The notes: generated from the sequence alone by a model not told the origin. A DNA stretch of 64,000 nt from an uncultured delta proteobacterium (GCA_963814585.1 CAWFDF010000014.1:32001-96000), one strand, 5' to 3'; numbered from the stretch's first letter, positions 8,808-25,345 are shown. Made by a program: numbers and translations.

Positions 8808-8810
8808 GGC

Positions 8811-9206
8811 TCACCCTCCCGCCGGCCGGAGCCGCTGCCTGTCCCTCGGCACCACGCAGGTCCCGCTGGCGCGACAGACCAGCACCGGCGTGGCCAGGAC
8901 CTCGGCGGCGCTGGCGCCCAGGTCGGGGCGGGGCGCGATCACCTTCCAGGCCTCGAACCTCATGCCACGGGAGGTGGCGCCGGAGGAGGCGATCTCGCCC
9001 GAGGCCTCCACGTAGTCGCCGGCGTGGACCGGGGCGAGGAACTCCACCGCGTCGTAGGCGCGGAAAAGCCCCTCGTCGCCGTCGTGGCGGATCAGCAGCT
9101 CGGTGGCCACGTCGCCGAAGAGCGCCAGCATCCTGGCCCCGTCGACGAGGTGGCCCCCGTAGTGGGCGTCGGCCTGCGACATCCTCAACCGGATCGTCAC
9201 CTTCAT
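8811..9206 (-). CDS. kal: 3-aminobutyryl-CoA ammonia-lyase (hotdog fold)
   Basis: [51 protein letters not shown], characteristic Kal sequence. Confidence 0.92.
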
Positions 9207-9973
9207 CCGTGGTGCTCCTTTCCCATCCGCCTCAGCACCTCGCCCACGATGTAGTTGGCCACGGTGGAGGGCCTGGTGCCGGGACCGAAGCCGGCGTCGT
9301 AGCCGAGCTCGAGCGCCAGCTTGTGGTCGATGCGCGGGCCGCCCAGCAGCAGGATCACCCGCTGCCGCCGTCCCAGCCGCTCCAGCTCGTCGACGAGGCG
9401 GCGGGCGTTGTCCCGGTGGACGTCGCGCTGCGTGACCACCTGCGAGACCAGCACGGCGTCGGCGCCGCGCTCCACCGCCAGCCGGGCCAGCTCGGCGTTC
9501 TCCACCTGCGCCCCGAGGTTGATGGCCTCGAAGCACGGGTAGCGCTCCAGCCCGGAGTCGCCGGCGAAGCCCTTCATGTTCATGATGGCGTCGATGCCGA
9601 CGGCATGGGCATCGGAGCCGGTGCAGGCCCCCAGCACCACGACGCGCCGTCCGATCTCGCGCAGGGCCAGCTCGTTCAGCTCGTCGAACCCCTTCGGGCG
9701 CGTCACCACCTCGGCCACCTGCAGCGTGGCGAGATCGACGGCCACGCCGGTCCGGCCATAGACGACGAAGACGGTGAAGCGCTCCGCCGCGGCCTCCATC
9801 GAGGCCACCAGCACCTGGCTCAGCCCCATCTGGCGTGCCACCTCGGCCGCCGCCTCGCGAGCCCGCTCGCCGGCCGGCACCGGCAGGACGAAGGAGAGCT
9901 GGACGACGCCGTCGTCCTGGCGATCCCCGTACGGGCGGACCAGCGTGCCGGCGGCCGGTGGGCGGGCGGTCAC
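9203..9973 (-). CDS. kamE: Lysine 5,6-aminomutase beta subunit (B12-binding)
   Basis: RPYGD..DDG.VQLSF dimerisation domain, DAHAVG cobalamin motif, NMKG PLP lysine, GYDAGFGPG. Confidence 0.95.
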
Positions 9974-10491
9974 GGGGCGCCCCCCAGGCGCGCCGACTGC
10001 ACCACGGCCCGCCAGGTCTCGAGGAGCGGCTGGCTCACCGGCGAGCGCCCGGTGAAGGTCAGCCAGTGCTGCTCCGGCCCGGCGCAGGCCAGGTACGCCC
10101 AGCCGTGACTGCCTCCCTGGTCGGCCTCCTGCTCCACCGCCGGCTTCCCACCGAGCGAGCTCAGGTGGCGCTTGACCCGCTCCAGCCCGGCGTCGCGCTC
10201 CCTCAGCGCCGCCTCCCCGGCGGCGAGGCAGGCCGCGCCGTCCGCGCCGCGCGGCCCGGCGGCCCACGCCTCCAGCCTCGCGCTCCCCTGCGGTGGCACC
10301 AGGGCCAGCCTGCGGGCGTCGCCGCTGGCCTCCCAGGCCGACGGGGCCTCGATGGCGAGCGCGCCCACCTGGTAGCCCCGCCACCCCGGGCGGGCCGAGG
10401 GGCGTGACTCGGGCGGGCCCCGTCCCAGCAGGCCGGCGCAGCCGGTGGCGAGCCACAGCGCGAGCGCGGCGGACCAGCGCGTCGAGGTCAC
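9970..10491 (-). CDS. Hypothetical lipoprotein
   Basis: 173-aa ORF with signal peptide and lipobox-like ATGC, overlapping both neighbours by 4 nt. Confidence 0.65.
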
Positions 10492-12059
10492 GTGGCCTCC
10501 AGCCCGTCGAGGAGCGGGTTGAAGTAGTCGGGGGCGCGCGCCACCACGCCGTCGAGCCCCTTGCCTCCGGTCTCGCGGCGCGCCACGTCGCCGAAGCGGG
10601 CCTTGCCGATGGCGGCGAAGAGGCCGTCGGCGGCCACCTCCTCCAGCAGCTCGCGGGCGCGGTGCAGCGTCGCCGCCGCCCGCGACTCCACCATCCCGCC
10701 GGGCTTCAGCTGCAGCTCGGCCCCCATCGAGCGCCAGGCCCGGTAGACGTAGTCGGCACCCTTGAGCGCGGCGTACCGGTCCATCAGGAGGGGGTTGTGC
10801 ATGGCCTCGGTCATCATGCCGAGCAGCTGGATCCCCTGCCCGGTCACCCAGCCCACCACGTCGGCCATCAGGTCGTAGCCGTGGCTGAAGAAGATGTCGC
10901 CCTGCTTGTGCTTGGTGGGCGGCATGTACTTGATGGGCGCCGCCGGGAAGAGGGTCCGCACCAGCAGCGCCTGCGCCAGCTCGCGGGCGATGGTGTCCTC
11001 GCGCGCCGGGTCGATCTCGAAGCTGTGGCCGAGCCCGAGCAGCCGGTCAGGAAGCCCGGCCCGATGGGCGAAGGACTCGTTGACGAACTGCGAGGCGATG
11101 ACGGTGTGGGCCGCCTCGTCGGCGTCGGCGGTGGTGATGTAGTTGTCCTCGCCGGTGTTGATGAGGATGTCGGCCAGCGCGCAGATGCGGCGCGAGAAGT
11201 GCTGGTCGCAGAGGGTCCGCCGCATGTTGATGTCGCGAAAGAGGATGCCGTACATGGCGTCGTTGAGGAGCATGTCGAGGCGCTCCCACGCCCCGGCGAA
11301 GGCGATCTCCGGCATGCAAAGGCCGGACGAGTAGTTGGTGAGGTGGAGGTAACGACCCAGCCGGCGCGACTCGTCGTCGAGGGCCTCGCGCATGATGCGG
11401 AAGTTCTCCTGGGTGGCGTAGGTGCCGCCGAACCCCTCGGTGGTGGCGCCGTGCGGGACGTAGTCGAGGAGGGACTGGGCCGTGGAGCGGATCACCGCGA
11501 TGACGTCGGCGCCGGCCTGGGCGGCAGCCCGGGCCTGCTCCACGTCGTCCCAGATGTTGCCGGTGGCCACGATCACGTACTTGTGCGGCCGCGGTCCGGC
11601 CCCCAGCTCCGCCTTGAGGGCGTTGCGCGCCGCCACCCGCCCCCTCAGCTCGGCCAGCGCGGCGCGGGCCTCGCCGGCCAGGTCCTGGCGCAGCGCCCGG
11701 TCCTCGGCGGGCGACAGCCCAGCCGGCCGCTCCGGCAGGCTGGCGATGGCCTCGACGATGGCGGCCGGATCGCGCGCCCCCTGGCGCATGACGTACCCGA
11801 GCCACCAGGCGGCGCCCCGCCCGAGCAGGCCTCGCCGGTGCAGCTCGTCCACGACCAGGTTCACCTGGGGCACGCCGCGCGGCCCGGCCCCGTGCAGCCC
11901 GAAGAGCCGCAGCACCGTCCGCTCGATGGCCACGGTGGTGTGGCGATCGACGAGGTCCAGGACCGGCGCCGTCACCTGGTCGGCCAGGGCCCGGCAGCGG
12001 GCGACCTCCTCCCGGTCGAGGTGGAGATCCGGGACGTGGCGGCCATCGGCGAGGAGCAT
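10488..12059 (-). CDS. kamD: Lysine 5,6-aminomutase alpha subunit
   Basis: HTTVAIERT, YVIVATGNI, IRSTAQSLLDYVP, GGTYATQENF, NYSSGLCMPEIA, NTGEDNY, KYMPPTK. Confidence 0.96.
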   Translation of the reverse strand: MLLADGRHVPDLHLDREEVARCRALADQVTAPVLDLVDRHTTVAIERTVLRLFGLHGAGPRGVPQVNLVVDELHRRGLLGRGAAWWLGYVMRQGARDPAAIVEAIASLPERPAGLSPAEDRALRQDLAGEARAALAELRGRVAARNALKAELGAGPRPHKYVIVATGNIWDDVEQARAAAQAGADVIAVIRSTAQSLLDYVPHGATTEGFGGTYATQENFRIMREALDDESRRLGRYLHLTNYSSGLCMPEIAFAGAWERLDMLLNDAMYGILFRDINMRRTLCDQHFSRRICALADILINTGEDNYITTADADEAAHTVIASQFVNESFAHRAGLPDRLLGLGHSFEIDPAREDTIARELAQALLVRTLFPAAPIKYMPPTKHKQGDIFFSHGYDLMADVVGWVTGQGIQLLGMMTEAMHNPLLMDRYAALKGADYVYRAWRSMGAELQLKPGGMVESRAAATLHRARELLEEVAADGLFAAIGKARFGDVARRETGGKGLDGVVARAPDYFNPLLDGLEAT

Positions 12060-12128
12060 GCCGCGAGGTGTAGGCCGCGGGGCCCCGGACGGCAAGGGAT
12101 TCCCGGAGCCTTCCCCGGCCGCGCCCGA

Positions 12129-13442
12129 TCAGCTGGCCCGGGAGGCCCACCAGGCCCGGGCGGCGCCGGAGAGCCCCTCGGCGGTGTTGAGCCCCGGCTC
12201 GTCGAGCACCAGGTCGAGCAGGTGGCGCAGCCCCTCTCCGACGTGCGGACCCGGCGGGCAGCCGAGCCGCGCCATCAGGCCGCGGCCGTCGAGCGCCAGC
12301 GCGCCCGTCTCCAGGGGGGCCCCCGAGTGCAGCTCCCCCTCGGCGCGCGCCCGCAGCCGCCTCGCCGCAGCGCCAGCCTTCGGCCGGCGGGCCGGCGGCA
12401 GCGCCGCCACCTCGGCCTCGCGGAGCGCCAGCAAGGCCTGGACCCGCCCGGGCCCCACCCCCGCCAGCCAGCGGCGAACCACCGGCGGCGAGACCGGATC
12501 GTCCGGCCCGGCCTCGCGCAGGCAGGCGTGGCGGGCCGCCAGGGCCGCCACCTCGGTCGCCACCCGCCCCGGGAACCGCAGGCTCGACAGCAGCCCCTCG
12601 ATCTCCGCGACCGGCGCGGCGTGGAAGAGGGCCGTGAGCCTGAGCGCCAGGTCCGGCGGCTCTCCGCCGATCGCCGCGGCCACCGCGCCGAGGTGGCGCA
12701 GGCGGGCCGGGGGCAGCGCCGCCAGGGGCGGCGCCAGCACCTCCAGCAGCCCGGTGGCGCCGAGCAGGCCGAAGGCCCGGGCCACGTGGCGCGACACCGC
12801 CAGGCGCCCCAGCTCCTCGGCCATCCGCTCCCGCGACACCTGCCGGACCACCGGCACGGCGCCGCGGATGGCCGCGCGCGTGCCGGCGTGGAGGCGGAAG
12901 CCGAGCTGCCCCGCGAAGCGGACCGCCCGCAGGGCCCGCAGGCCGTCCTCGGCGAACCGCTCACGGGCATCCCCCACGGCGCGGAGCACGCCCGCGCCGA
13001 GATCGCGCTGGCCTCCGAACGGGTCGACCAGCTCCAGCGCCAGCGGGTCGAAGGCCATGGCGTTGATGGTGAAGTCGCGCCGGGCCAGGTCGGCCTCGAG
13101 GTCGGTGTGGAAGGTGACCGAGCCGGGGCGGCGGCCATCCGTGTAGGCCCCCTCGCCTCGGAAGGTGGTCACCTCCACCTTGAGCCGGTCGGGCGCGAGG
13201 ATGGTGACGGTGCCGTGGTCGATGCCGGTGGGGATGACCCGCGGGAAGAGCTCCATCACCTGCTGCGGCGTGGCCGGGGTGGCCAGGTCGAAGTCGAGCC
13301 CCTGGCGAGCCCGGCGAAGCAGGAGGTCCCGCACCGCGCCGCCGACCACGTAGGAGCGGTGGCCCTTGGCGGCGAGCCGCGTGAGCACGCCGAGCACGGC
13401 GGGGGGGAAGACGGCGCTGCGCAGCGGCGCGGGGAGCGGCAT
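12129..13442 (-). CDS. cca: tRNA nucleotidyltransferase (CCA/A-adding, class II)
   Basis: VGGAVRD, DFDLAT, EVTTFR, DLARRDFTINAMA, RFAEDGLRALRAVRF, VSRERM. Confidence 0.9.
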   Translation of the reverse strand: MPLPAPLRSAVFPPAVLGVLTRLAAKGHRSYVVGGAVRDLLLRRARQGLDFDLATPATPQQVMELFPRVIPTGIDHGTVTILAPDRLKVEVTTFRGEGAYTDGRRPGSVTFHTDLEADLARRDFTINAMAFDPLALELVDPFGGQRDLGAGVLRAVGDARERFAEDGLRALRAVRFAGQLGFRLHAGTRAAIRGAVPVVRQVSRERMAEELGRLAVSRHVARAFGLLGATGLLEVLAPPLAALPPARLRHLGAVAAAIGGEPPDLALRLTALFHAAPVAEIEGLLSSLRFPGRVATEVAALAARHACLREAGPDDPVSPPVVRRWLAGVGPGRVQALLALREAEVAALPPARRPKAGAAARRLRARAEGELHSGAPLETGALALDGRGLMARLGCPPGPHVGEGLRHLLDLVLDEPGLNTAEGLSGAARAWWASRAS

Positions 13443-13598
13443 GTCACGGAGCGTACCGCGGGAGGCCGCGGGCCGACAGCGGACGACGGAGCCGGGGCCC
13501 GCCACCCGCGGCCACGCGCCAGCGCGGCGGAGGCGGATCGGCGCCGGCCGGCTGGCTGCCCCCATTCCCCACCGGCCCAATCGGGTACCATGCGGGGC

Positions 13599-14171
13599 AT
13601 GTCCGTCGATGGCCGGGTCGCCGCACTGCTCGCCGAGCGCGACTTCAAGAGCGCCGCGGAGGTGGTCATGCGGGAGTACGGACCCGGCGTCCGCGGGCTC
13701 CACCTGACCATCTTCCGCCGGAACCCGGACGCCGCCGAGGAGGCGTTCTCGCTCTTCGCCGAGAACCTGTGGCGCTACATCGGCGGCTTCCGCGGCGAGG
13801 CGTCGGTCCGGACCTGGGTCTACACCATGGCGCGCAACGCGGCCGTCTCGGTCACCCGGGAGGGGTGGCGCAAGCTGGGCCGTCGCCTGGACACCGTCGA
13901 GGCCGACCGGCTCGCCGAGGAGGTGCGCACCCGTTCGGCGCTTCGCCTGGAGCGCCAGTCCACCGCGCTGACGGCGCTGCGCGACGCCCTGGACCTGGAC
14001 GAGCAGACGCTGCTCACGCTGCGCCTCGACGAGCGGCTGCCGTGGGACGAGATCGCCCAGATCATGTCGTCGGAAGGCGAGCCGATCGATGCCGCGACCA
14101 TCCGGAAGCGCTTCGAGCGGCTCAAGGCCAAGCTGGGCGAGCTGGCGAGGCAGCAGGGACTGATCGGGTGA
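13599..14171 (+). CDS. ECF-type RNA polymerase sigma factor
   Basis: Region 2 (AEEAFS...FRGEASVRTWVYTMARN) and region 4 (LLTLR...WDEIAQIM...TIRKRFERLK) only. Stop overlaps the kinase start (GTGA). Confidence 0.88.
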   Translation: MSVDGRVAALLAERDFKSAAEVVMREYGPGVRGLHLTIFRRNPDAAEEAFSLFAENLWRYIGGFRGEASVRTWVYTMARNAAVSVTREGWRKLGRRLDTVEADRLAEEVRTRSALRLERQSTALTALRDALDLDEQTLLTLRLDERLPWDEIAQIMSSEGEPIDAATIRKRFERLKAKLGELARQQGLIG

Positions 14172-17097
14172 CGACGCAGGAGTCCAGGGACCCGGGCTCG
14201 CTCTCCCGCCTCCTCGAGGAGCTGGCGGAGGTCCCCCGCCCCGACGTTCCCGCCGCCTACGCGGCCGGGCTCCGGCCTGGCACCCGGGTCGGCCGCTTCA
14301 TCATCGAGCGCGAGATCGGACGGGGGGCTTCGGCGTGGTCTACGCGGCCCTGGACCCGGAGCTGGGGCGCACCGTGGCGCTGAAGCTGCTCAAGCCCGGC
14401 AGCAGCCCGGCGCGCAAGGGCGGCGAGTGGCTGCGTCGGGAGGCCGAGGCGGTGGCGCGGCTGGGACACGCCAACATCGTCACGCTGCATGACTTCGGCC
14501 GCACGCCCGGCGGCGCCTACCTGGTCTTCGAGCTGCTGCGGGGCGAGACCCTGTCGGCCCGCCTGGGCCGTGGGCCGCTGCCCGTCGAGGAGCTGGTCCA
14601 CGTCGGCCTCTCGGTGGCCAGGGCCCTGGCCCACGCCCACGCCGAGAGCGTCCTTCACCGTGACCTCAAGCCGGCCAACATCTTCCTGTGCTCGAACGGC
14701 ACGGTGAAGGTGCTCGACTTCGGCATCGCCCACCTCTTCGAGAAGGACGGGCCCTCGACGGGCGGGACGCCGGCCTACATGGCGCCGGAGCAGTGGTGGG
14801 AGGAGACGGGAGACGCCCGCAGCGACCTGTTCGCCCTCGGCGTCCTGCTCCACGAGATGCTCACGGGCGCCCTCCCGTTCGGGAAGAGCGGCGTCGGCAA
14901 GTCAGCGCCGAAGCTCGCCGCCACCGTGCCCAGGGATCGGGCCCCCGCCAGGCTCCGGAAGCTCATCGAGGCGCTGACCCAGCTCGACCCGGAGGCGCGT
15001 CCGGCCTCCACCCACCTGGTGGTGCAGGAACTGGAGGCGATCTCGTCGGCGCTGCGGGAGCGACGGCGTCCCTGGCTGCTCGCCGGACTCGCCCTCGCGG
15101 TGCTGGCGGTGGGCGCCATCGGAGTCGTGGCGGGGCTCCGGCGGGAGCCCCCGGCCGGCGAGATGATCACGGCCGCCATCGCCGACGCCGAGAACGCCAC
15201 CGGCGATCCCGATCTCGACCGCCTCGCCGATCTGGTGGCCGTCGCCCTCGGCGAGTCGCGCCGGGTCCGGGTGATCTCGAGGGATCGGCTCCTGGCCGCC
15301 GGCCGCGGCACCAGCGCCGGCGCCGCCCCTCGCGTCGACGTCCGCACCGGCCGGCTCCTCTCCGAGCTGGCCGGGGCGCACGTGCTGCTGGTCCCGGTGG
15401 CGCGTCGGGACGGCGACGCCTTCTCGCTGCAGCTGCGCGGCGAGGCGCCGGATGGTGGGCCCACGCTCTTCACCGCCAGCGCCCGCGCCGGCGGGAAGGA
15501 GGCCATCCCGGCCGCGCTCGATCAGCTCGTCGCCACGGCTCGCCGGGAGCTCCGGGAGCGGACCGACGACCTCAGGCGATCCCCGGCCCAGCTCGCCGCC
15601 ATGACCACCTCCAGCTTGCCGGCCTTCCGGGAGTACGTGGAAGGGGTCGACTGCATGAGCCACCCGGCTCAGGCCGCGGGCCACCTCGGACAGCAGCGCT
15701 GCAAGGACTTCTTCTTGAAGGCCCTGGGTCACGACCCGTCCTTCGCGCTGGCCCACTACCAGCTGGCCTACTTGCTCTCCTCCGGCGGCGCGACGGAGCC
15801 CGAGCTGCGAGCCCACCTGGACGGGGCGCTGCGCTCGCTGCAGCGGCTCTCCCGGCGCGACGCGGCCGTGGTCCGGGCCTGGAAGGCACACCTCGACGGC
15901 CGGGACGACGAGGCGCTGGCCGCGTACGGCGAGGTCCTCTCCGAGCACGCCGACGACCGGCACGTCCTGTTCCTGGCCGGCGATCTCCTCTTCCACCGGA
16001 AGGACTGGGCCGGCGCCACCCCGTACTTCCAGGCGCTGCGCGGGCTCGACCCCGACGCCGAGTGGCCGCTCGACCACCTGGCCACCTGCCTCGCCGTCAC
16101 CGGCCGCACCACGGAGCTTCGCGAGCTGGCGGTGCGCCTGAGCGCTCCGGACGCCACGCCGGGTGGCCGCCGGCTGGCCATCCGGGCGCTGGTCTGGCTC
16201 GGCGATCCGTCCGCCGCCGTGGACCTGGCGCGGCGCCACGTCGACGGCGGGGCCACGGCGGGGGCGCGCCACGACCTGGTCGCCGCCCTCTTCGCCGCGG
16301 GCGACTTCGACGAGGCCGAGCGGGTCACCCGCCAGCTCATCGCCGCCAGCCCGCGCGACCCGGCCAACCGATTGCGGCTCCTCACCATCTACGGCGCCCA
16401 GGGGCGCTTCGCCGAGGCCTGGCTGACGCTTCGGAGCCTGCAGCGGGAGGTCGACGGGCTGCTCCCGGGCGAGCTGGCCCACCTGCGCGCCCTGCTGGCC
16501 GCCGGGGACGGCGAGGTCGAGGTACTCCGGGACGCGGCCATCGCCGCCGTGAAGCTCCAGCCCGATGCGGCGGGCGCTCCGCTGGTCCTGCTGACGCTGC
16601 TGGGAGATCCCGGCCAGGCGCGATCGCTGGCCACCTCGCTCGAGCAGGGCTCGACCGCGGCCCGGGAGGTAGTCGCGCTCGAGGCCTGGCGCCGTGGCGA
16701 GCGCGCCGCGGCGGCGGCCGCGATCGCCCTCCTGGAGCAGCGGGACCCGTGGGCGATGGAGGCGATCTCGCCGGCCTTCCTGCTGGCCGAGGTGACCGCC
16801 GACGGAGGCGAGCCCTCCGAGGTGGTGTCGGCCGTGGCGCGGTTCCACCGGATCTGGCCCGGGGGTCTCTGGCACGGCTGGGCCTGGTCCCGCTCGCTGC
16901 TGCTGGCGGCCCGGGCCGAGGAGCAGCTGGGCCGGGACGTCGAGGCGCGGGCCGCCGCCGATCGCCTGCTCTCCGTCCTGCGGCACGCCGATCCTGGCCT
17001 CCCGCTCCTGGCCGAGGCGCGCGCCCTGCGAAACCGGCTGCGCCGCCGGGAGTCGGGGAACACCACCGTCGCTCCTCCGACGCCGGCGAGGCCGTAG
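14168..17097 (+). CDS. Membrane Ser/Thr protein kinase with extracytoplasmic TPR region, frameshifted in a G run at 14322-14327
   Basis: Adding one G gives IGRGGFGVVY. Then VALK, HRDLKPAN, DFG, GTPAYMAPE, DLFALG, a TM helix and TPR repeats. Confidence 0.9.
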
Positions 17098-17141
17098 TCC
17101 CCCTGATCGGCGCGGCTCCCGGCGCCCACCGCCGTGCCACG

Positions 17142-17167
17142 GGTCACACTCGAGGGGGTGGTTCGTC
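17142..17167 (+). promoter_or_regulatory. Candidate ECF promoter GGTCACA-N13-TTCGTC, copy 1
   Basis: Same bipartite motif with identical spacing recurs at 18927-18952. Lies 70 nt upstream of the small peptide ORF. Confidence 0.6.
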
Positions 17168-17236
17168 CACCTCGCAGCCGGGAGATTCTGACCTCCGGCG
17201 TCAGCCCCTCGAACCGTTCCTGCAAAGGACCACGCC

Positions 17237-17428
17237 ATGGCCACTCGAGACACCCTCCGAATCGCCGACCTCTTCGCCTGGGGGGCCCTGTCGGCCCCGG
17301 GCTGCATCTACCCCGCCACGCAGGAGGCCCCGCACGCCACCCCGGGCAGGTCCGAGCAGGACGACCTCGGCGGCCTCCTCCCCTGGGGCTGCGAGCAGCA
17401 GGAGCAGGAACGGCAGGACCAGGCCTGA
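17237..17428 (+). CDS. Putative RiPP (graspetide) precursor peptide, 63 aa
   Basis: AAGGA RBS. Small ORF directly upstream of an ATP-grasp ligase, with several Thr/Ser and a Glu/Asp/Gln-rich C-terminal half. Confidence 0.6.
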   Translation: MATRDTLRIADLFAWGALSAPGCIYPATQEAPHATPGRSEQDDLGGLLPWGCEQQEQERQDQA

Positions 17429-17501
17429 GCATGGCGACGGCCTCCTCATGGCGGTCTGCGCCGGCCCTGGCCGGACGGCCTCCCAGCGGAGGAGCCCCGC
17501 C

Positions 17502-18515
17502 GTGATCCTCGTCGTCAGCCATCCCGACGACGCCCACGCGGCCCCGGTCATGGGGGCAGTGACGCGAATGGGCATGCGCTGCGTCATGCTCGACCTCGCC
17601 GAGGTGCCACGGCGGGTGCAGCTGGGCTTCTCGGCCGGTCGCGGGGCGACGGGCGCCAGCTTCACGGGGCTGGACGGGGCCCGGATCGACGCCACCCGGT
17701 TCGACGCCGTCTGGTGGCGCCGCCCGCGCCCCTACGTCGTGGACGAGGCCCTCTCGACGTCCTTCGCCGCCTACGCGACCGCGCAGGTCCACACGGCGCT
17801 GTCCGGAATCTGGGGCTCGCTCCGCGCCGCCTGGATGAACGATCCCTGGCTGGACGAGCGGGCCGGGCACAAGCCGGCGCAGCTGGCGGCCGCCGAGGCC
17901 GCCGGGCTGGAGGTGCCGCCCACGCTCGTCAGCTGCGTCCCGGCCGACGCTCGCGCCTTCCTGCAGGAGCAGGGCGAGCAGCGGGTGATCCAGAAGCCGC
18001 TGCGGCCAGATGAGGTGAGCTGGCGGCCCACCCGCTTCGTGACCGAGCGCGACCTGGACCGGCTCGACGACCTGCGGCTCGCCCCCGCCATCCTCCAGGC
18101 CTACGTCCCCGGCACCGACATCCGCGTCACCGCCGCCGGGCACCGGCTCCTCGCGACGGCCATCGACGCCCGGCACACCAGCTCACCGCAGGACTTCCGT
18201 CCCGCCTACGCGCAGGCGCGGGTGTCTCCTTGCGAGTTGCCGGGCGGCGTCGCCGCCGGCGTCCGCGCGCTGCTCCAGGCCCTCGGCCTGCGCTACGCGG
18301 CCCTCGACTTCCGCAGGACCGACGAGGGGCGGTACTACTTCCTGGAGTCCAACCCGGCAGGCCAGTGGCTCTTCCTCGAGGACCGGACCGGCCAGCCCAT
18401 CACGGCCGCGGTCGCCGAGGCGCTGGTCGAGGCGGCGCACGAGGCGCGGAGCGGCGTGGCGGCCAGGCGTCCCGCCTGCCGCGCGGTGGCCGATGTGCGG
18501 AGGCACGCCCGATGA
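17502..18515 (+). CDS. ATP-grasp peptide ligase (MvdC/MvdD/RimK-like)
   Basis: GGAGGAG RBS then GTG. ILVVSHPDDAH, AVWWRRP, WMND...HKPAQLAAA..AGL.VPPTLVS, IQKPL, LQAYVPG.DIRV, LGLRYAALDF, FLESNPAGQWLF. Confidence 0.88.
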   Translation: MILVVSHPDDAHAAPVMGAVTRMGMRCVMLDLAEVPRRVQLGFSAGRGATGASFTGLDGARIDATRFDAVWWRRPRPYVVDEALSTSFAAYATAQVHTALSGIWGSLRAAWMNDPWLDERAGHKPAQLAAAEAAGLEVPPTLVSCVPADARAFLQEQGEQRVIQKPLRPDEVSWRPTRFVTERDLDRLDDLRLAPAILQAYVPGTDIRVTAAGHRLLATAIDARHTSSPQDFRPAYAQARVSPCELPGGVAAGVRALLQALGLRYAALDFRRTDEGRYYFLESNPAGQWLFLEDRTGQPITAAVAEALVEAAHEARSGVAARRPACRAVADVRRHAR

Positions 18516-18844
18516 CGGCGACGCACGCAGCGGAGCCGAGGCGACCTCTCGGCCTGGCGGCGGCCCTGGCCGAGGACGGCGCCGTGATCGTGCTGGTCAT
18601 GGGCTCGGGGCCGGACTCGGACGAGGCCGAGGAGCGCTGCCACCGGCTGGCGCTCGACCCCGGCTTCGAGGCGGTCCGGGTGGTCCGGATTCGCGACCAG
18701 GCCGAGCTGACCGGCCCGCAGCGGGCCTACTGGCTGGCCGGTGATCGTCCCCTGGCGGTCCTCGGGCCGAGGGGACGGGTGGCTCTGCCGCTGGAGCGCC
18801 CCGACGCGGTCGATCTCTTCGTCGCGGTGGCCGCCGTGGCCTGA
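18512..18844 (+). CDS. Hypothetical protein, 110 aa, translationally coupled to the ATP-grasp gene
   Basis: ATGA overlap at 18512-18515 with GGAGG upstream and high-GC3 codon usage. Confidence 0.6.
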   Translation: MTATHAAEPRRPLGLAAALAEDGAVIVLVMGSGPDSDEAEERCHRLALDPGFEAVRVVRIRDQAELTGPQRAYWLAGDRPLAVLGPRGRVALPLERPDAVDLFVAVAAVA

Positions 18845-18926
18845 GAATCAACGTACCGCAAGGACGGCGCTTTCCCCCTTGGGATCGCACCCGGCTGCCC
18901 TGATCGGCGGGGCGCTGCGCCGTCCC

Positions 18927-18952
18927 GGTCACATCCCGTCACGCCATTCGTC
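18927..18952 (+). promoter_or_regulatory. Candidate ECF promoter GGTCACA-N13-TTCGTC, copy 2
   Basis: Matches 17142-17167. Lies 85 nt upstream of the response regulator start. Confidence 0.55.
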
Positions 18953-19036
18953 TGCCTCGGCGACACGGTCTCCACCTGGATTCCGTGAAGGTCGTGTCGT
19001 CTTGCCACCCGGCGCCACCGGCGCCAGAGAGACCGC

Positions 19037-19450
19037 GTGAAGACCATCCTGCTGGTGAACGAGAGCAAGGTGACCCTGGAGCTGATCAAGGTCTACCTCG
19101 TCGGCAAGGACGTGCGGGTGCTGGAGGCCCTCGACGGGATGGAGGCGCTGTCCCTGACCCGCCTGGAGCGGCCAGACCTGATCCTCTGTGACCTGAGGCT
19201 CCCCCGACTCGACGGCCCGGGGCTCTGCCGCGAGCTGAGGGAGGACCCGTCGCTCCGGAGCACGCCGGTCGTCATCCTCTCCAGCGAGAGCGACCAGGAG
19301 ACGCGGCGCACCTGCCGCGAGGCGGGAGCGCGCGGCATCCTCCAGAAGCCCATCGGTCCCCACGAGCTCCACGAGGCCGTCCTGCGCCACGCCGGCATCG
19401 AGGTCGGCCTGACCTACCCCAGGCCGCCCAACCTCGACCGCGCTGGCTGA
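19037..19450 (+). CDS. Single-domain response regulator (CheY-like)
   Basis: Receiver fold: ILLVNES, PDLILCD, PRLDG, VVILSS, LQKP. Confidence 0.88.
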   Translation: MKTILLVNESKVTLELIKVYLVGKDVRVLEALDGMEALSLTRLERPDLILCDLRLPRLDGPGLCRELREDPSLRSTPVVILSSESDQETRRTCREAGARGILQKPIGPHELHEAVLRHAGIEVGLTYPRPPNLDRAG

Positions 19451-19555: not shown

Positions 19556-19629
19556 TGGTCCCGGCGGGACTCGAACCCACGGCCTACTGTTTAGGAAACA
19601 GTTGCTCTATCCAGCTGAGCTACGGAACC
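19556..19629 (-). tRNA. tRNA-Arg (anticodon CCT), CCA end not encoded
   Basis: Minus strand GGTTCCGTAGCTCAGCTGGATAGAGCAACTGTTTCCTAAACAGTAGGCCGTGGGTTCGAGTCCCGCCGGGACCA folds as a cloverleaf with ACTGT/ACAGT anticodon stem and TTCGA T-loop. Confidence 0.97.
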
Positions 19630-19857: not shown

Positions 19858-21963
19858 ATGAGCCTCCCTCCCATGCTGGGCGAGCTCCACGAGGTTCGCG
19901 GCGCCCTCACGGCAGACCGGCGTGGCCAGGTCCACGCCACCGTCAAGGAATTCCCCGGAGCCGCCGACGAGGCCGCCGCGGTGGCGGTCGCCGTCACCGA
20001 GCTGAGCGCGGCCGGTGCGTCGCTCGGGCTCGACGCGCTGCGAGGACTCGAGGTCAAGGGCCCGAGCCGGACCACGCTCACGGCGGTCCGCGCTGACCTG
20101 TTCCTGCTCGCCGACCTGGATCCGGTCAAGCGGCCCGGCCACGCCCAGGAGACGCTGGAGGCCTGGCAGCGTGGTGAGGTCCTGCCGGCCCCGGGCCCGG
20201 TGCCTGGCCCGTCCGGTCTCACCGGCGTGCTGCCGGCCGCCGAGCCGCCTCCCTTGCCGCCACGCCCCAGCCCCGCCCCGACCGCCTCCGCCACCCGGCT
20301 CATGGCGCTCGATGACCCGTGGGGATCCCTTCGCCGCGCGCTGGTTCGCGGTCACCTCACGCGCGCTGCCGCCTTCCAGCAGGCCATCGTCGACGGCGGG
20401 GCCGGCCCGTCGCCGGCGCCCGGCAGCGAGGCGCTCCCCGCCAAGGCCCTTCAGGAGGCCATGCAGCGCCTGCTCGAGGGCATCGGCAGCATCATGGCCG
20501 GGGACCCCATGGGCGGCGCCCGCTCCCTGTCCGAGCTGGCCAGGGAGACCCAGCCCAACCTCTCCATCCGCTGGCTGGCCCACTACTGGTCGGCCCGGGC
20601 CGCCCTCCAGGGGGGCGGCGCCGAGACCGCCCGGGACCACGTCCGCGAGACCCTGGGCCTCTCGCGCCAGCTCGACGTCGAGGCCCGCGGGGTCAGCCAG
20701 CTGCTGGCGGCCGAGCTGCTGGCTCGCGGCGGCGACCTGACCAAGGCCCTGAGCTGGCTGGCGGAGGCCCGCGGCCGCTTCGAACGGGTGGCCGACCGCT
20801 GGGGGCTCGGCCAGTCCTGGCTGGCCGAGGCGCGCATCCTGGTCGGCCGCGACGAGGCGGCCTGCGTGGCGGCGGCCCAGCGCGCCCGCGACGCCGATCC
20901 GGCATGGGACGAGCCGCAGGTCTTCCTCGCCAGCCGGGCCCTGATGGCCGGGGAACCGGGCAGCGCCAGGGCCGCGCTCGGCGACCTCCGCTCGCCGGCC
21001 GCCGATCGCCTTCGCACGGTGCTGGAGGCGGTGGCGCAGCGGCAGATCTCGCTCCCCGACGCCGGCGAGTTCCTCCGCGTCCACCACGCGCCGCCGTCCG
21101 GCCAGAACCTCCGCTCGCTGGAGCGGATCGCCAACGCCTCCCCGCGCTTCCTCCAGGCGCGCGAGGCCCTGGCCTGGCTGCTGGTCAAGCTGGGCCGCTA
21201 CGCCGCCGCGCGCGAGGTCTTCGTGTGGCTGCTCGAGCAGCCGCTCGAACCCGCCGACCAGGCCATGGTGACGCTCGGGCTGAGCTGCACGGCCACCGCG
21301 CTCCAGGCCGCCGGCACCGCGTCGCCGCCCGGCGCCGCCGCTGGTCCCGGCAAGGGCACCGTCACGGGCCGCCCGCCCGGCACGCCACCAGCCCTGGGCG
21401 ACTCGGCCCTGCTGCCCCAGGGGACCCGCGCCACCGTCTCCGGCCTCGACGCCATGTTCTCGGGGAGGCTCAGCGTCTTCTCGCCCGCCGACCTCGTCGA
21501 GTTCCTCCGCACCGCCGGACGCAGCGGGCTGCTGGTGTGCAGCTCCCAGGGCGGCGTGGGAGCGTTCCGCTTCCGCCAGGGCAGGATCACCGGGGCCGCC
21601 GCACCGTCGACGCCGAGCGTCGGCGAGCTGCTGGTCCGGAGCGGACGGCTCACCGCCCAGGGCCTGGCCTCGGCCGGTCCTGCCCGCGAAGGCTCGCTGA
21701 TCGACGCCGAGCTGGTCTTCCGGCTGGTCCAGCTCCGGCTGGTCGAGGCCGCCGCCGTGCGCGAGGCCAGCCGCCAGCAGATCGAGCAGGCGCTGCGCGA
21801 GCTGATCGACTGGACCGACGGCGAGTTCGCCTTCACGCGGGAAGACGATGAGCCGCAGGCCGGCGAGGCCACCATCGAGCTGGATGCGCAGCAGCTCCTG
21901 CTCGAGATCTTCCGCGAGCGGGACGAGTCCACCCGTGGTCCCGTCCCCAGCTCCCGAACCTGA
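19858..21963 (+). CDS. Multidomain protein: roadblock-like N-terminus, TPR-like middle, C-terminal DUF4388 (PATAN-like) domain
   Basis: C-terminus FSGRLSVFSPADLVEFLRTAGRSGLL...FRQGRITGA...LIDWTDGEFAF...QLLLE is typical of DUF4388. N-terminus has a roadblock-like pattern. GGGGAGG RBS. Confidence 0.78.
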   Translation: MSLPPMLGELHEVRGALTADRRGQVHATVKEFPGAADEAAAVAVAVTELSAAGASLGLDALRGLEVKGPSRTTLTAVRADLFLLADLDPVKRPGHAQETLEAWQRGEVLPAPGPVPGPSGLTGVLPAAEPPPLPPRPSPAPTASATRLMALDDPWGSLRRALVRGHLTRAAAFQQAIVDGGAGPSPAPGSEALPAKALQEAMQRLLEGIGSIMAGDPMGGARSLSELARETQPNLSIRWLAHYWSARAALQGGGAETARDHVRETLGLSRQLDVEARGVSQLLAAELLARGGDLTKALSWLAEARGRFERVADRWGLGQSWLAEARILVGRDEAACVAAAQRARDADPAWDEPQVFLASRALMAGEPGSARAALGDLRSPAADRLRTVLEAVAQRQISLPDAGEFLRVHHAPPSGQNLRSLERIANASPRFLQAREALAWLLVKLGRYAAAREVFVWLLEQPLEPADQAMVTLGLSCTATALQAAGTASPPGAAAGPGKGTVTGRPPGTPPALGDSALLPQGTRATVSGLDAMFSGRLSVFSPADLVEFLRTAGRSGLLVCSSQGGVGAFRFRQGRITGAAAPSTPSVGELLVRSGRLTAQGLASAGPAREGSLIDAELVFRLVQLRLVEAAAVREASRQQIEQALRELIDWTDGEFAFTREDDEPQAGEATIELDAQQLLLEIFRERDESTRGPVPSSRT

Positions 21964-21971
21964 CCGCGACC

Positions 21972-23876
21972 ATGCCCTCCGCGCCAGCCTCGATCGACCC
22001 CAAGGGCCAGGGCCCCGTGGATCTCTCCAGGCTGGCCGGGTTCAAGCTGGGCAACTACCGGCTCGAGCGAATCCTCGGGCGTGGCCGGATGGGCGTGGTC
22101 TACCTGGCGCAGGACGAGGCCCTGCTGCGGCCCACCGCCATCAAGGTGCTGGCCTGGGCGAGCGGCGACGCCAGCGGCCAGGATCCGGTCCAGTGGTTCC
22201 TCGGCGAGGCCCGGCTGGTGGCGCGCATCAACGATCCGCGGGTGGTGCAGATCTACGGCGCGGCCAGGCAGGGGGACTACTGCTACATCGCCATGGAGTA
22301 CGTGGCGGGCCAGTCCACCGAGGCGCTCATCGCCACCGGGGGACGCCTCTCGCCGGAGGCGGCCACCGACATCCTGGTGCAGTCCTCCTCGGCCCTCCAC
22401 GCCGCGCACGTCGCCGGCGTCGTCCATCGCGACGTCAAGCCGGGAAATCTGCTGATCGGACCGGGCGGCATGACCAAGCTGGGCGACTTCGGCATGGCCC
22501 ACGGCTCGGCCGGCGTCCCGGTGGGCAACGCCTCCGTGCGCGCCGGCACGCCGTTCTACACGGCGCCGGAGATCTGGCGCGGCGCCGTGGCCAGCCCGGC
22601 CTCCGACATCTACGCGCTGGGCGCGACCTACTTCCACCTGCTCACCGGGCGGCCACCCTTCCTCGGCGCCGACCTGGACGAGGTCGAGCGCGCCCACCTC
22701 GGGGCGCCGGTCCCCGATCCTCGCGATCTGGTGCCCGGGCTCCCGCCCTCCTGCTCGACGCTGGTGGCGCGGGCGCTGGCCAAGAACCCGGCCGATCGCC
22801 AGCCCTCGGCGCAGGTGCTGATGTGGGAGGGCCGCCGAGCGCTCCAGGAGCTGGCGGCCGCCTCCCCCGCCACGCCCCCGGCCAGGAGCCTCGCGCCCAC
22901 GCCGGCGCGCCCGCCGAGGCCACCTGTCCCCCGACCCGCGCCGCCACCACTGGCCGGACGCTTCCAGTTCATCCGGGCGCCCTTCGACCTCTTCGACCCG
23001 CTCCTCGCCCCCTTCCAGGCCGCGCCGCTCGACGGAGTCCGGCGGCGGCTCCAGGCCCTGGTCGAGGACCCTCCCACGACGCAGGTGGCGCTCACCGGCC
23101 CGCCCGGGAGCGGCCGGACGACGCTGCTCAGGCAGCTGGCCGCCGACGTCGCGATCTCGGGGGCCCGCCTGGTCCTCTCGGTGGACGACGCGAGCCGGGA
23201 CGATGGCCGGTCGGCGCTGCAGCGGCTCTGCCGCGCCGCGGGGGTCCCCGACGAGGGCGTGACACGCCTCGACGGGTTGCTCCACCGGCTCGGCGAGGAG
23301 CGCGGCCGCCCGCTGCCGCTCCTCCTCGTGGACGGGCTCGACGGGAGGTCCGAGCTCGATCCCGACCTGCTGGCCCTGGCCGCGGCGGCGGCCTGGTCGA
23401 GGACCTTCAAGCTGGTGGTGGCGGGGCCGGCGGGGCTGGGCCGACGGCTCGCCTCCGCCACCGACCCGGGCGAGCGGGCCCCGTGGGTCGAGCTCCCGGT
23501 CCCCGCACTCGACGCCGTCCAGGTGGCTCACTACGTCCGCAGCTGGCTCCGCGCCAGCCGGGCCCCGGACGCCGCACCCATCCACCTCTCGGCCGACGCC
23601 CTCCTGCTGGCCGCCCACCGGTCCGGGGGGCGGCCGGGGACCGTCGACGTGATCGGCTGGAACATGCTGGCGCTGGCCGCGGCCGCCGGACGACCCACCC
23701 TCACCTCGTGGCATGCCTGGGCCGCCGCCGCCGGCACCCCGTGGCCCGAGGCCCGCCCACCGCCGGGCCTGGTCGCCATGCCCCCTGGGTGGCCGACCAC
23801 CGAGGCCCGTGCGGTCATCGACGAGTGCCGCCGGGGGGCCGGGCTGCCCCCCTGGCCGGAGGTCGGGAGCACATGA
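21972..23876 (+). CDS. Cytoplasmic Ser/Thr kinase fused to an ExeA/AAA_22-like ATPase domain
   Basis: LGRGRMGVVY, AIK, HRDVKPGN, DFG, GTPFYTAPE. After a Pro-rich linker: GPPGSGRTT, LLLVDG, HRSGGRP. Confidence 0.85.
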   Translation: MPSAPASIDPKGQGPVDLSRLAGFKLGNYRLERILGRGRMGVVYLAQDEALLRPTAIKVLAWASGDASGQDPVQWFLGEARLVARINDPRVVQIYGAARQGDYCYIAMEYVAGQSTEALIATGGRLSPEAATDILVQSSSALHAAHVAGVVHRDVKPGNLLIGPGGMTKLGDFGMAHGSAGVPVGNASVRAGTPFYTAPEIWRGAVASPASDIYALGATYFHLLTGRPPFLGADLDEVERAHLGAPVPDPRDLVPGLPPSCSTLVARALAKNPADRQPSAQVLMWEGRRALQELAAASPATPPARSLAPTPARPPRPPVPRPAPPPLAGRFQFIRAPFDLFDPLLAPFQAAPLDGVRRRLQALVEDPPTTQVALTGPPGSGRTTLLRQLAADVAISGARLVLSVDDASRDDGRSALQRLCRAAGVPDEGVTRLDGLLHRLGEERGRPLPLLLVDGLDGRSELDPDLLALAAAAAWSRTFKLVVAGPAGLGRRLASATDPGERAPWVELPVPALDAVQVAHYVRSWLRASRAPDAAPIHLSADALLLAAHRSGGRPGTVDVIGWNMLALAAAAGRPTLTSWHAWAAAAGTPWPEARPPPGLVAMPPGWPTTEARAVIDECRRGAGLPPWPEVGST

Positions 23877-24196
23877 ACGATCTGGAGACCGTGGCCCGCC
23901 TGCCCGGCGTCAGCGTCGCCGTGCTCGGCGACCTCGAGGGGACCTTCCTGGGGGCGTTCGGCACCGCCGACGGGGAGACCATCGCCGCCGAGATGGGGTT
24001 CGTCGGCAGTGCCATGCGGGGAGCGGGTGAGCTGCTCGGCCTCGGTGCCCTCGCCTCCCTCTCGTTCTCCGGCCGGACCAGCGCCTGCCTGCTGGTGGTT
24101 CGCCCCCGGGCGCTCATCACGGCGCTGGTCGCGCCGCCCCAGTCGCTCGGCCCGGTCGAGCGCGCGGTGGACGCCGCGCTCCAGGGGCCGACCTGA
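23873..24196 (+). CDS. Roadblock/LC7 (MglB-like) domain protein
   Basis: 107 aa, LPGVSVAVLGDLEG...ETIAAE...GELLGLGAL pattern. ATGA overlap with the kinase. Confidence 0.7.
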   Translation: MNDLETVARLPGVSVAVLGDLEGTFLGAFGTADGETIAAEMGFVGSAMRGAGELLGLGALASLSFSGRTSACLLVVRPRALITALVAPPQSLGPVERAVDAALQGPT

Positions 24197-24197
24197 C

Positions 24198-24393
24198 ATG
24201 GACACCATCCTCCTGGGCCGGCTCGACCTGGCGGGCATCCACGCTGCGCTGCGACGGGGCCGGCCGGCTGCTGGGCCACCGGGGGCGATCGGTCCACCTC
24301 CGGGCGTTCGCCCACGAACTGGCGACCAGGGTCGAGGACGGCGATGATCGCCGGGCCTTCCTGGTCGCGCCGGAGCGGACCGGCGGCACGTAG
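24198..24393 (+). pseudogene. Small frameshifted or degenerate ORF with a helical motif seen at the C-terminus of roadblock/DUF4388-associated proteins
   Basis: ATG 1 nt after the roadblock stop. A different frame reads ...LRAFAHELATRVEDGDDRRAFL...GGT-stop at 24393. Confidence 0.35.
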
Positions 24394-24414
24394 TCCCACG
24401 GAGCGGAGATCCAC

Positions 24415-25332: not shown

Positions 25333-25345
25333 AGGAGACACCACC

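Follow-up and report, generated by a model that had tools for sequence, protein, structure and literature searches.

The genes at positions 13599 to 19450 of the window, which is the whole analysed stretch of 64,000 nucleotides from an uncultured delta proteobacterium, form an operon that encodes a small peptide and its predicted ring-stapling enzyme, both of which are probably turned on by the membrane sensor kinase and the sigma factor encoded beside them. The favoured reading, to which the comparison of sequences gives a somewhat better than even chance, is a signal-to-peptide module, in which a kinase-activated ECF sigma factor would drive a core-first precursor that is cyclised between T6 and D11. 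The six co-oriented genes of the preliminary description (ECF sigma factor, kinase, 63-aa ORF, ligase, 110-aa ORF and receiver) were all confirmed at their places, as was the absence of anti-sigma, transporter and protease genes from the block. The two translational couplings claimed there were also found: the GTG start of the kinase (14168) overlaps the stop of the ECF gene (end at 14171), and the start of the 110-aa ORF (18512) overlaps the ligase stop (18515). The 63-aa ORF is indeed preceded by a ribosome binding site (AAGGA). Two conserved promoter-like sites (17143-17167 and 18928-18952) were not part of that description. The features are:

13581..13592, +, conserved TCGGGTACCATG ahead of the ECF gene (aligned upstream of 4/5 orthologous ECF genes, in one case with one change)
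13599..14171, +, ECF sigma factor, 190 aa (TIGR02937 54.5 bits, cut-off 42.9; no anti-sigma neighbour)
14168..17097, +, Hanks-type Ser/Thr kinase (Pkinase 140 bits; TPR families; motifs and hydropathy)
17143..17167, +, ECF-type promoter motif GTCACA-N14-TCGTC (17/17 orthologous regions with enough DNA)
17237..17428, +, 63-aa candidate precursor (16 orthologs aligned; AAGGA upstream; GC3 0.92)
17252..17269, +, predicted core T6-x4-D11 (S/T 16/16, D 16/16), with a putative omega-ester ring
17381..17389, +, P49-W50-G51, proposed ligase-recognition motif after the core (P 15/16, G 16/16)
17502..18515, +, graspetide-synthetase-type ATP-grasp ligase, 337 aa (PF21068 41.6 bits, cut-off 27)
18512..18844, +, 110-aa thioredoxin-fold protein, coupled to the ligase, genus-restricted (model pLDDT 74)
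18928..18952, +, promoter motif, second copy, ahead of the receiver gene (15/16 orthologous regions)
19037..19450, +, stand-alone response-regulator receiver, 137 aa (PF00072 87 bits)

The part of the block from the kinase to the 110-aa ORF recurs across the genus, and the ligase and the 110-aa ORF were each found in 9 of 12 other genomes. Judged from this recurrence and from the preserved length of the peptide ORF, the conservation of the block exceeds chance. Among the 66 ligase matches in the family loci, 53 are located directly behind a TPR kinase, while 8 are truncated and 5 lack a kinase. An ECF gene is adjacent in 27 of the 53 kinase-linked loci (13 upstream, 14 downstream), and 12 of the 53, all with full flanks, have no ECF nearby, which counts against the favoured reading. 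The constant partner of the ligase across the family is the kinase, not the ECF. The preliminary description had proposed to examine homologous loci for conservation of peptide, ECF and kinase; peptide and kinase are conserved with the ligase, the ECF only in part. The distances of ligase and kinase were correlated in 34 loci (Spearman 0.74 for the TPR part and 0.83 for the kinase part) and also in 19 dereplicated loci (0.67 and 0.74; 0/999 permutations), a correlation that shared ancestry would yield as well and that to this extent counts against the favoured reading. The pairing of kinase and ligase with highly varied peptides in one myxobacterial family hints at a cyclic-peptide signalling system.

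It is very unlikely that the ECF-kinase pairs are a generic multi-copy cassette, with the ligase operon merely located behind one of them and not under its control. Eight ECFs of the same type occur in the genome, six of them near a kinase and only one with a ligase, and this view would also account for the loci without an ECF and for the missing promoter in the paralogs. However, the kinase-ligase adjacency is kept at ligase identities between 33% and 100% and in a wide variety of chromosomal settings, the ECF shifts around the pair yet remains with it, and two ECF-type motifs unique in the genome lie inside the block.

These motifs consist of fixed boxes with a variable spacer in the orthologous promoter regions. 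The first base of the upstream copy lies 94 nt ahead of the peptide start, and the strict form GTCACA-N14-TCGTC occurs twice in the 4.34 Mb genome, both times in this block. We infer that the co-encoded ECF reads both promoters, which we consider very likely; it would thereby transcribe the genes of the peptide, the ligase and the thioredoxin-fold protein from the first and the receiver gene from the second. Against this, seven further close ECF paralogs are encoded in the genome, so that any of them might read the promoter, and in paralogous loci the motif was found in 2/46 cases in a loose form and in 0/26 with a narrower pattern. When 46 paralogous loci were searched de novo for a promoter in common, nothing credible emerged, and the kinase coding sequence confounds this search. 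The signal-switched peptide-modification operon suggested previously thus gains support from the ECF-type promoter ahead of the peptide and ligase genes and from the joint occurrence of kinase and ligase; the layout is refined in that the precursor seems to be core-first and the receiver gene has its own promoter copy.

The activation of the ECF by the kinase is fairly likely, by analogy to described pairs. The ECF43/Hanks-kinase pairs EcfK-PknS (PMC13147305) and EcfP-PknT (PMC8999054), as presented in the available parts of these articles, share with this locus an ECF without anti-sigma factor beside a single-pass kinase with extracytoplasmic TPRs; their outputs are a T6SS or polymyxin resistance, in contrast to the peptide-modification operon here. 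The single-pass kinase would sense something through its extracytoplasmic TPR domain and would phosphorylate the ECF, by analogy to ECF43/PknS probably at a Thr/Ser of the linker or at S51. Candidate sites are S51 in sigma2.2 and T99, T111 and S113 in the linker, whose columns hold S/T in 15, 15, 15 and 17 of 17 aligned homologs, respectively; the conserved linker Thr/Ser resemble T104-S110 of EcfK in the available part of PMC13147305. Membership in ECF43 itself was rejected despite the co-encoded Hanks kinase without anti-sigma factor: this group is defined, in the same parts of PMC13147305 and PMC8999054, by replacement of the sigma2.2 DAED motif by an uncharged STTA/QTTA, whereas the acidic motif (D-A-x-D/E) is kept here, with D44 and E48 columns acidic in 15/17 and 17/17 rows. 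The ECF was not placed in any other group either. Since the acidic motif is kept, the ECF need not be phosphorylated, which counts against the favoured reading. Autoregulation of the ECF through the GTCACA motif was rejected (loose match in 1/5 ECF upstream regions); TACCAT within 13581..13592 could be a housekeeping -10 element.

The kinase consists of a kinase domain, a single TM helix (~15076-15132) and an alpha/beta domain with a TPR superhelix (15148-17094), the model of which (pLDDT 88) gave TPR fold matches; these were generic TPR superhelices, with no specific receptor family among the matches listed. A Cys pair in the C-terminal domain is invariant in 13/13 rows. While the gene, the hydrophobic helix and the TPRs were found as expected, the frame is not intact: as assembled, the gene is frameshifted by one base in a G-run at ~14321-14327 (glycine-rich loop), which counts against the favoured reading. 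The orthologs L031, L034 and L035 read through at this position, and contigs from 4/4 sequencing runs of related strains, none being the source strain, carry one extra G behind 14321. An assembly error is likely, though not proven. From the TM helix to the TPRs (~440 residues) the kinase matches TIGR04510, 'putative peptide modification system cyclase', with 97.5 bits, far below the cut-off of 400; the sensor domains are related, with a cyclase output there and a kinase here. We take the name of that family to reflect its peptide-modification gene context. No peptide-like ORF follows any of the other 17 kinase matches of the genome, and a genome-wide pattern scan for a second peptide, as a substrate in trans, gave nothing convincing.

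The ligase is the only copy found in the genome. A RimK-type ligase was rejected, because TIGR00768 (RimK) gave 22.4 bits in comparison to 236.6 bits for TIGR04187 and because all 6 PDB matches were of graspetide type, with no RimK at E ≤ 1; the clustering with RimK that the preliminary description had named as a possible refutation was therefore not observed. All curated cut-offs were missed (TIGR04185 152/425, TIGR04184 126/475, TIGR04187 237/350 bits), and the earlier MvdC/D-type assignment holds for the graspetide type, not for MvdC/D proper. In 40 rows, K124, K165, R208, D269 and N284 are invariant and E282 occurs in at least 90%; presumably these are the ATP- or metal-binding and catalytic residues. 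The characterised graspetide synthetases (microviridin MdnB/MdnC, AMdnB, CdnC; 9BOU, 7M4S, 5IG8, 5IG9, 7MGV, 7DRM) share the pre-ATP-grasp domain (E 1e-32 to 3e-15) and the catalytic residues, but in contrast to their systems the precursor here has no N-terminal PFFARFL-type leader, a transporter is missing and signalling genes are attached.

By sequence, the ligase appears to be a relative of the ligases of branch 7 / group 30, of which no member has been characterised. The branch 7 list (Makarova et al. 2022, PMC8939145) includes four Anaeromyxobacter ligases and a 330-aa ligase of S. lydicus with a YscW-like neighbour on the contig of L138, to which the ligase here is 42% identical. A precursor in the available part of the group 30 list (Carter et al. 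2026, PMC13097080) matches the peptide of L094, an ortholog of the locus studied here. In the available parts of PMC8939145 and PMC13097080 the ligases are described as peptidase-associated, no precursor is predicted for branch 7, most of the group 30 rows examined give YscW-like proteins as 'precursors', and the main text does not mention Ser/Thr kinases or sigma factors. Instead of a peptidase and a YscW-like protein, the neighbours here are a kinase, a small ORF and a thioredoxin-fold gene.

The peptide ORF comprises 62-65 codons in 16/16 aligned orthologs at 22-71% identity, so that the small ORF, whose lack of conservation would have spoken against the earlier proposal, is conserved among orthologs. 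Besides T6 and D11, conserved donors are S19 (15/16) and T28 (14/16), and the acids E53 (16/16), E56 (15/16) and D61 (15/16) follow PWG; an adjacent ORF with conserved Ser/Thr donors and Asp/Glu acceptors, as is typical of graspetides, is thus present. The peptide belongs to no Pfam or NCBIfam family, NCBIfam precursor families were absent from the 16 members, and a protein search gave a single match with 97% identity. Values of dN/dS (0.48-1.38) were uninformative, with GC3 above 0.9. A Phhx(1,2)h or PFFARFL-type leader motif is absent from the first 30 residues of the 16 orthologs; according to the available part of Makarova et al. (PMC8939145) it is found in only ~50% of precursors, and its absence therefore does not exclude a graspetide.

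Under the same regulation the peptide might be a conventional leader-first graspetide, in which residues 1-18 (R-D-T..D-L-F) are the leader and S19/T28 are linked to E53/E56/D61 in a hairpin with PWG in the loop. The order of donor and acceptor columns agrees with this, and in characterised graspetides, according to the available parts of PMC12291112 and PMC8939145, the leader is N-terminal and donors on the N-terminal side are linked to acceptors on the C-terminal side. We nevertheless regard this as unlikely: the Pro-aromatic motif is at residue 49 and not within the first 30 residues, as is usual in the available part of PMC8939145, it comes after the repeats in related systems (45/53), and in paralogous ORFs the acidic tail is swapped for a helix or a Lys/Ala run, although [TS]-x4-D and P(W/F)G are retained.

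In the favoured core-first reading, the ligase would dock on P(W/F)G, placed after the core instead of in an N-terminal leader, and would join T6 to D11 by an ATP-dependent omega-ester; further rings to E53, E56 or D61 may form. A T6-D11 ring is slightly favoured. In the first 25 residues, [TS]-x4-D occurs in 13 of 27 clusters of the small ORFs of the family (shuffle mean 5.7; 0/1000 shuffles), a spacing first spotted by eye, after which nine spacings were tested; it is missing from 14 clusters, mostly where the ligase is less than 43% identical, which counts against this reading. A 433-aa ORF in which the small ORF seems fused to the ligase (P0087, L102/L166) was set aside, as it resembles a frameshift in comparison to L100/L204.

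Outside the family, ligases of this kind follow unrelated enzymes, among them proteases and tyrosinases, whose C-terminal tail is composed of T-x-K..D repeats, then PFxL and finally a helix (45/53). PFxL was found in 49/53 of these tails and at least two repeats before it in 45/53, with none after it (control 6/225 and 0/225); the commonest repeat has acids at +5,+6 (118 repeats). The T6-D11 spacing is enriched in these repeats, as it is in the family's unrelated small ORFs. The small ORFs look like stand-alone versions of these tails, with [TS]-x4-D followed by P(W/F)G, and the peptide would accordingly be a free 'repeats-PFxL-helix' tail. Paralogous ORFs with the tail helix have P(W/F/L)G at the corresponding position. 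A search of 8272 six-frame segments with a model of the longer tails placed ORFs 8-94 nt ahead of a ligase within the top 11 rows; the single E-values were weak (best 0.008 and 0.033), which counts against the favoured reading, and the 63-aa peptides themselves were not matched. A quick-mode ligase tree of 126 rows, from which 31 duplicate or near-duplicate loci were omitted and in which truncated contigs bear the label 'other' and no characterised synthetase is included, did not resolve the join between kinase-linked and enzyme-tail ligases. The kinase-linked ligases do not fall together on one side of any branch, so that we claim neither a single origin nor a direction of descent.

Modification of the peptide by the ligase is likely. 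Binding is weakly supported by a model of the ligase dimer with the peptide, which scored 0.55 where the best control scored 0.00; its runs shared 63% or more of their contacts, and the pLDDT of the partner was 44 or higher. The mark that it passed was attained by 116/157 pairs with a solved structure and by 2/215 mismatched ones; similar complexes are already solved, so that the predictor may have memorised them. Quite improbably, the small ORF is a mere activator or docking partner, and what the ligase cross-links or tags is a larger protein, which could be the kinase, the ECF, the receiver or one encoded elsewhere. Ligase relatives do seem to act on enzyme tails, PFxL and helix form a separate coreless ORF in four paralogous loci (L041, L043, L044, L187), many paralogous ORFs are Lys/Ala-rich and acid-poor, no protease or exporter is present, and branch 7 has no predicted precursor in the available part of PMC8939145. 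This is opposed by the invariant T6 and D11 of the peptide, by the [TS]-x4-D signal and by the lack of a repeat-plus-PFxL tail on the kinase, ECF or receiver here.

In the fold search, the model of the 110-aa protein gave thioredoxin-like rows throughout (best Z 9.0, rmsd 3.1, 99 aligned); an atlas search gave leads only (best 0.90). Redox-active thioredoxins carry a CxxC where the first core helix begins; the 110-aa protein lacks this motif, and its single invariant Cys (C43) is in mid-helix. In most orthologous loci the receiver gene comes after the 110-aa ORF.

A function in signalling or feedback is the most likely one for the product, and an antibiotic less so, since every locus comes with a sensor but without genes for immunity or export. 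The lack of an exporter, a protease and a signal peptide counts against the favoured reading, and no exporter or peptidase recurred among the 70 of 96 neighbours scanned. The staphylococcal agr system combines a variable small cyclic (thio)lactone peptide, a cognate membrane kinase and a regulator that transcribes the peptide gene, with a dedicated processing and export protein. Only its logic is alike; no part is homologous, and the processing and export protein is missing here. A more speculative, rather doubtful extension would be an autoinducing, positive loop, in which a locus-specific N-terminal six-residue lactone is released as ligand of the co-encoded TPR kinase, which acts through the ECF on precursor and ligase. 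Release might occur on lysis or via a shared exporter.

Among the papers listed, literature searches found none that links a graspetide or RiPP to a kinase and an ECF sigma factor, none on graspetides in Anaeromyxobacter and, for follower peptide and quorum sensing, none on this combination; the peptide of the ortholog is already known from one dataset (PMC13097080), and for the kinase/ECF link no paper was found. Two published surveys flag this ligase group without a credible precursor, and the locus offers a 63-residue candidate substrate. The specific prediction of a T6-D11 ester that depends on the downstream PWG makes the substrate question testable. If true, the placement of the recognition motif behind the core would be the opposite of the common graspetide arrangement and might provide a tool for cyclisation of N-termini. 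Kinase-linked ECF signalling would be extended to a myxobacterial ECF with a kept acidic sigma2.2 and a predicted two-promoter regulon. If the autoinducing loop exists, it would unite parts never seen together and give the precursor-less branch 7 / group 30 a substrate rule, namely [TS]-x4-D cores that are recognised through a docking motif further downstream; feedback of the peptide on the TPR kinase would mean a signalling role for graspetides.

The locus encodes a module that is real and conserved, and its gene content, linkage, motifs and folds were shown. The preliminary description had proposed a graspetide locus of six genes, and all six were confirmed at their positions in the window:

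13599-14171, forward strand: ECF sigma factor
14168-17097, forward strand: Ser/Thr kinase with TPRs
17237-17428, forward strand: 63-aa peptide
17502-18515, forward strand: ATP-grasp ligase
18512-18844, forward strand: 110-aa ORF
19037-19450, forward strand: receiver protein

The surroundings are as follows:

7986-13442, reverse strand: divergent CCA/poly(A) polymerase family gene, then lysine-fermentation-like genes
19556-19629, reverse strand: tRNA-Arg(CCT), immediately behind the receiver gene
19858-25978, forward strand: cluster of a TPR/DUF4388 protein, a kinase-AAA fusion, small unassigned ORFs and a membrane protein

In several orthologous loci, the block is likewise followed by the last cluster, and the counterpart of the 7986-13442 region in the orthologous locus L031 contains lysine 5,6-aminomutase alpha according to Pfam. 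No genomic island around the block was indicated by the GC content of the window.

The start of the kinase gene overlaps the stop of the ECF gene (GTGA, 14168-14171). In the window assembly its reading frame is broken at a G-run at about 14321. Since the frame is intact at this site in three orthologs (L031, L034 and L035) and one extra G occurs there in the contigs of 4/4 related sequencing runs, the break is probably a homopolymer error. The kinase possesses intact catalytic motifs, a single hydrophobic helix preceded by basic residues, and a C-terminal alpha/beta plus TPR domain (predicted structure, pLDDT 88) with an invariant Cys pair, which is probably located outside the cytoplasm.

Close homologs carry the source labels Anaeromyxobacter or Anaeromyxobacteraceae, and the host probably belongs to this family. 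A ligase match (E<=1e-40) was present in 48 of 92 Anaeromyxobacteraceae genomes. Among the 66 matches classed from 65 family loci, 53 had a TPR kinase directly upstream; in eight the upstream DNA was too short to judge, and five had no such kinase by the cut-off used (three ligases 27-32% identical, one fragment, and L204, a locus with a kinase C-terminal remnant). Of the 53 kinase-linked loci, 13 had an ECF of the same type upstream and 14 had one downstream; none was seen in 12 loci with complete flanks or in the remaining 14, which are truncated. The distances of ligase and kinase correlate across loci, which fits joint inheritance; kinship alone would also give this correlation. Genes flanking the kinase-ligase block differ widely between loci, and no recurring exporter or peptidase was detected among the flanking neighbours scanned (70/96; E<=1e-12).

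The ligase scored 236.6 bits on TIGR04187 (below cut-off) versus 22.4 on RimK, its catalytic residues are conserved, and its PDB relatives are graspetide synthetases. An ortholog was placed in predicted group 30 by Carter et al. (PMC13097080), whose entry lists its peptide; this matches the peptide of L094, an ortholog of the present locus. Thus, the peptide has already been picked once by an algorithm, without description; among the rows considered, group 30 otherwise contains mostly YscW-like proteins. L138, one of the wider relatives, is a listed member of the ATP-grasp branch 7 of Makarova et al. (PMC8939145), for which those authors could not predict a precursor. More distant ligases (L064-L085), each located after a truncated ATP-grasp-like gene, resemble their branch 8 in this respect. 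The ligase of L198 (29% identical) has its own short upstream ORFs with Cys/Asp-rich ends and represents a different candidate peptide system.

Within a set of 80 genome loci, ligases from outside the family come directly after a large protein. A scan of 46 of these yielded 22 astacins, 10 trypsin-like proteins, 5 subtilases, 3 tyrosinases, 2 M43 proteins, 1 weak other match and 3 without match. PF[VILAT][LM] occurred within the last 110 residues of 49/53 upstream proteins (controls 6/225), and close variants were present in the other four. At least two [TS]-x-K..D repeats lay ahead of PFxL in 45/53 (controls 0/225), with none after it; some of the 53 are near-duplicates. These proteases and tyrosinases (L097-L165) are unrelated and come from many phyla. 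Their tails consist of 2-15 T-x-K-(E/F)..D repeats followed by PFxL and then a helix, and the proteins are probably whole-protein substrates of branch 7/group 30 ligases. Examples of tail-bearing genes directly upstream of the ligase are:

L114, 4407-5927
L145, 2608-4134
L109, 3994-5976

When a model of 12 longer tails was searched against 8272 six-frame segments, ORFs just before family ligases ranked in the top 11 rows (9 distinct), although each individual score was weak; this model did not match the 63-aa peptides, in which the helix is missing. Across 61 loci, 53 small ORFs that follow the kinase were called, and they formed 27 sequence clusters. [TS]-x4-D was found within the first 25 residues in 13 clusters versus a shuffle mean of 5.7 (0 of 1000) and was absent from 14; spacing 6 occurred in 10 (P 0.014), and the remaining spacings were at chance. 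The commonest enzyme-tail repeat shares the [TS]-x4-D spacing. Across its orthologs, the window peptide always shows the same kind of residue at T6 and D11, and likewise G51 and an acid at position 53.

Several of the small ORFs differ in composition. Histone-like Lys/Ala-rich peptides of 48-109 aa follow the kinase in eight loci (L046, L168, L174, L178, L179, L181, L186 and L191), several starting with [TS]-x4-D, and Cys-rich ORFs lie between kinase and ligase in six (L038, L167, L170, L176, L166 and L204). In L041, L043, L044 and L187, PFxL and helix form a separate core-less ORF at this position; in L041 and L044 the ORF ahead of it carries [TS]-x4-D as well as a Lys/Ala-rich run, and the two may represent a split precursor.

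A model of the ligase dimer with the peptide scored 0.55 versus 0.00 for the best control (contact agreement of 63% or more, partner pLDDT of 44 or more) and lends weak support to binding; it gives no interface and so is silent on which part binds, and like complexes have already been solved. The ligase would dock on P49-W50-G51 (PWG) and close a ring between T6 and D11 of a core-first precursor. A conventional leader-first hairpin graspetide, with which the conserved acids after PWG would agree, is unlikely, and it is very unlikely that the small ORF is an activator only, as the core-less ORFs of the four paralogous loci might suggest.

The 110-aa ORF was present in 9/12 other genomes of the genus and in 1/79 other genomes, and has a predicted thioredoxin-like fold without CxxC. 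Because partner-dependent synthetases exist (PMC13097080), this protein may be a ligase partner. A distant homolog (L202, 6394-6777), from a genome that yielded no ligase match, is coupled to an unknown gene of 577 aa.

The sequence GTCAC-N15-CGTC, in which the spacer is variable, precedes the peptide in 17/17 orthologous regions with enough DNA (including two near-duplicate pairs) and the receiver in 15/16; ECF-upstream regions showed a loose match in 1/5. The strict form GTCACA-N14-TCGTC, which we take to be an ECF-like promoter, occurs twice in the 4.34 Mb genome, both times inside this block, and other spacings of the GTCACA/TCGTC boxes yielded counts of 0-1. The motif was not found in the paralogous loci, and support for ECF control is therefore confined to this clade.

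The ECF retains acidic residues in sigma2.2, which places it outside ECF43; other kinase-linked groups retain DAED (PMC8999054). Comparison with the groups considered from PMC7826278 led to no group assignment. Its residues S51, T99, T111 and S/T113 are conserved, and in EcfK residues of both sigma2 and the linker are targets of a phosphorylating TM-TPR kinase (PMC13147305). The host genome encodes eight ECFs of this type and one ligase. Of the seven further ECFs, five lie close to a Ser/Thr kinase and none has a ligase beside it; they apparently form an unclassified kinase-linked ECF family:

C3, 149083-151189
C10, 110647-113694
C11, 133807-135113
C13, 23634-26464
C9, 27977-28522
C3, 323027

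The agr system is the model for a loop in which a cyclic peptide feeds its own sensor kinase. An agr-like loop, with the ring as ligand of the co-encoded kinase, is improbable here because nothing in the locus encodes export or cleavage, and because the peptide has no signal sequence while the kinase probably carries its TPR domain on the far side of the membrane from the cytoplasm.

Every single part of the module is of a known kind; neither the combination nor a stand-alone core-first precursor was found described in the open literature searched. The kinase would phosphorylate the ECF, which would read two promoters, before the peptide and before the receiver, and the receiver may be the intracellular output of this putative pathway.
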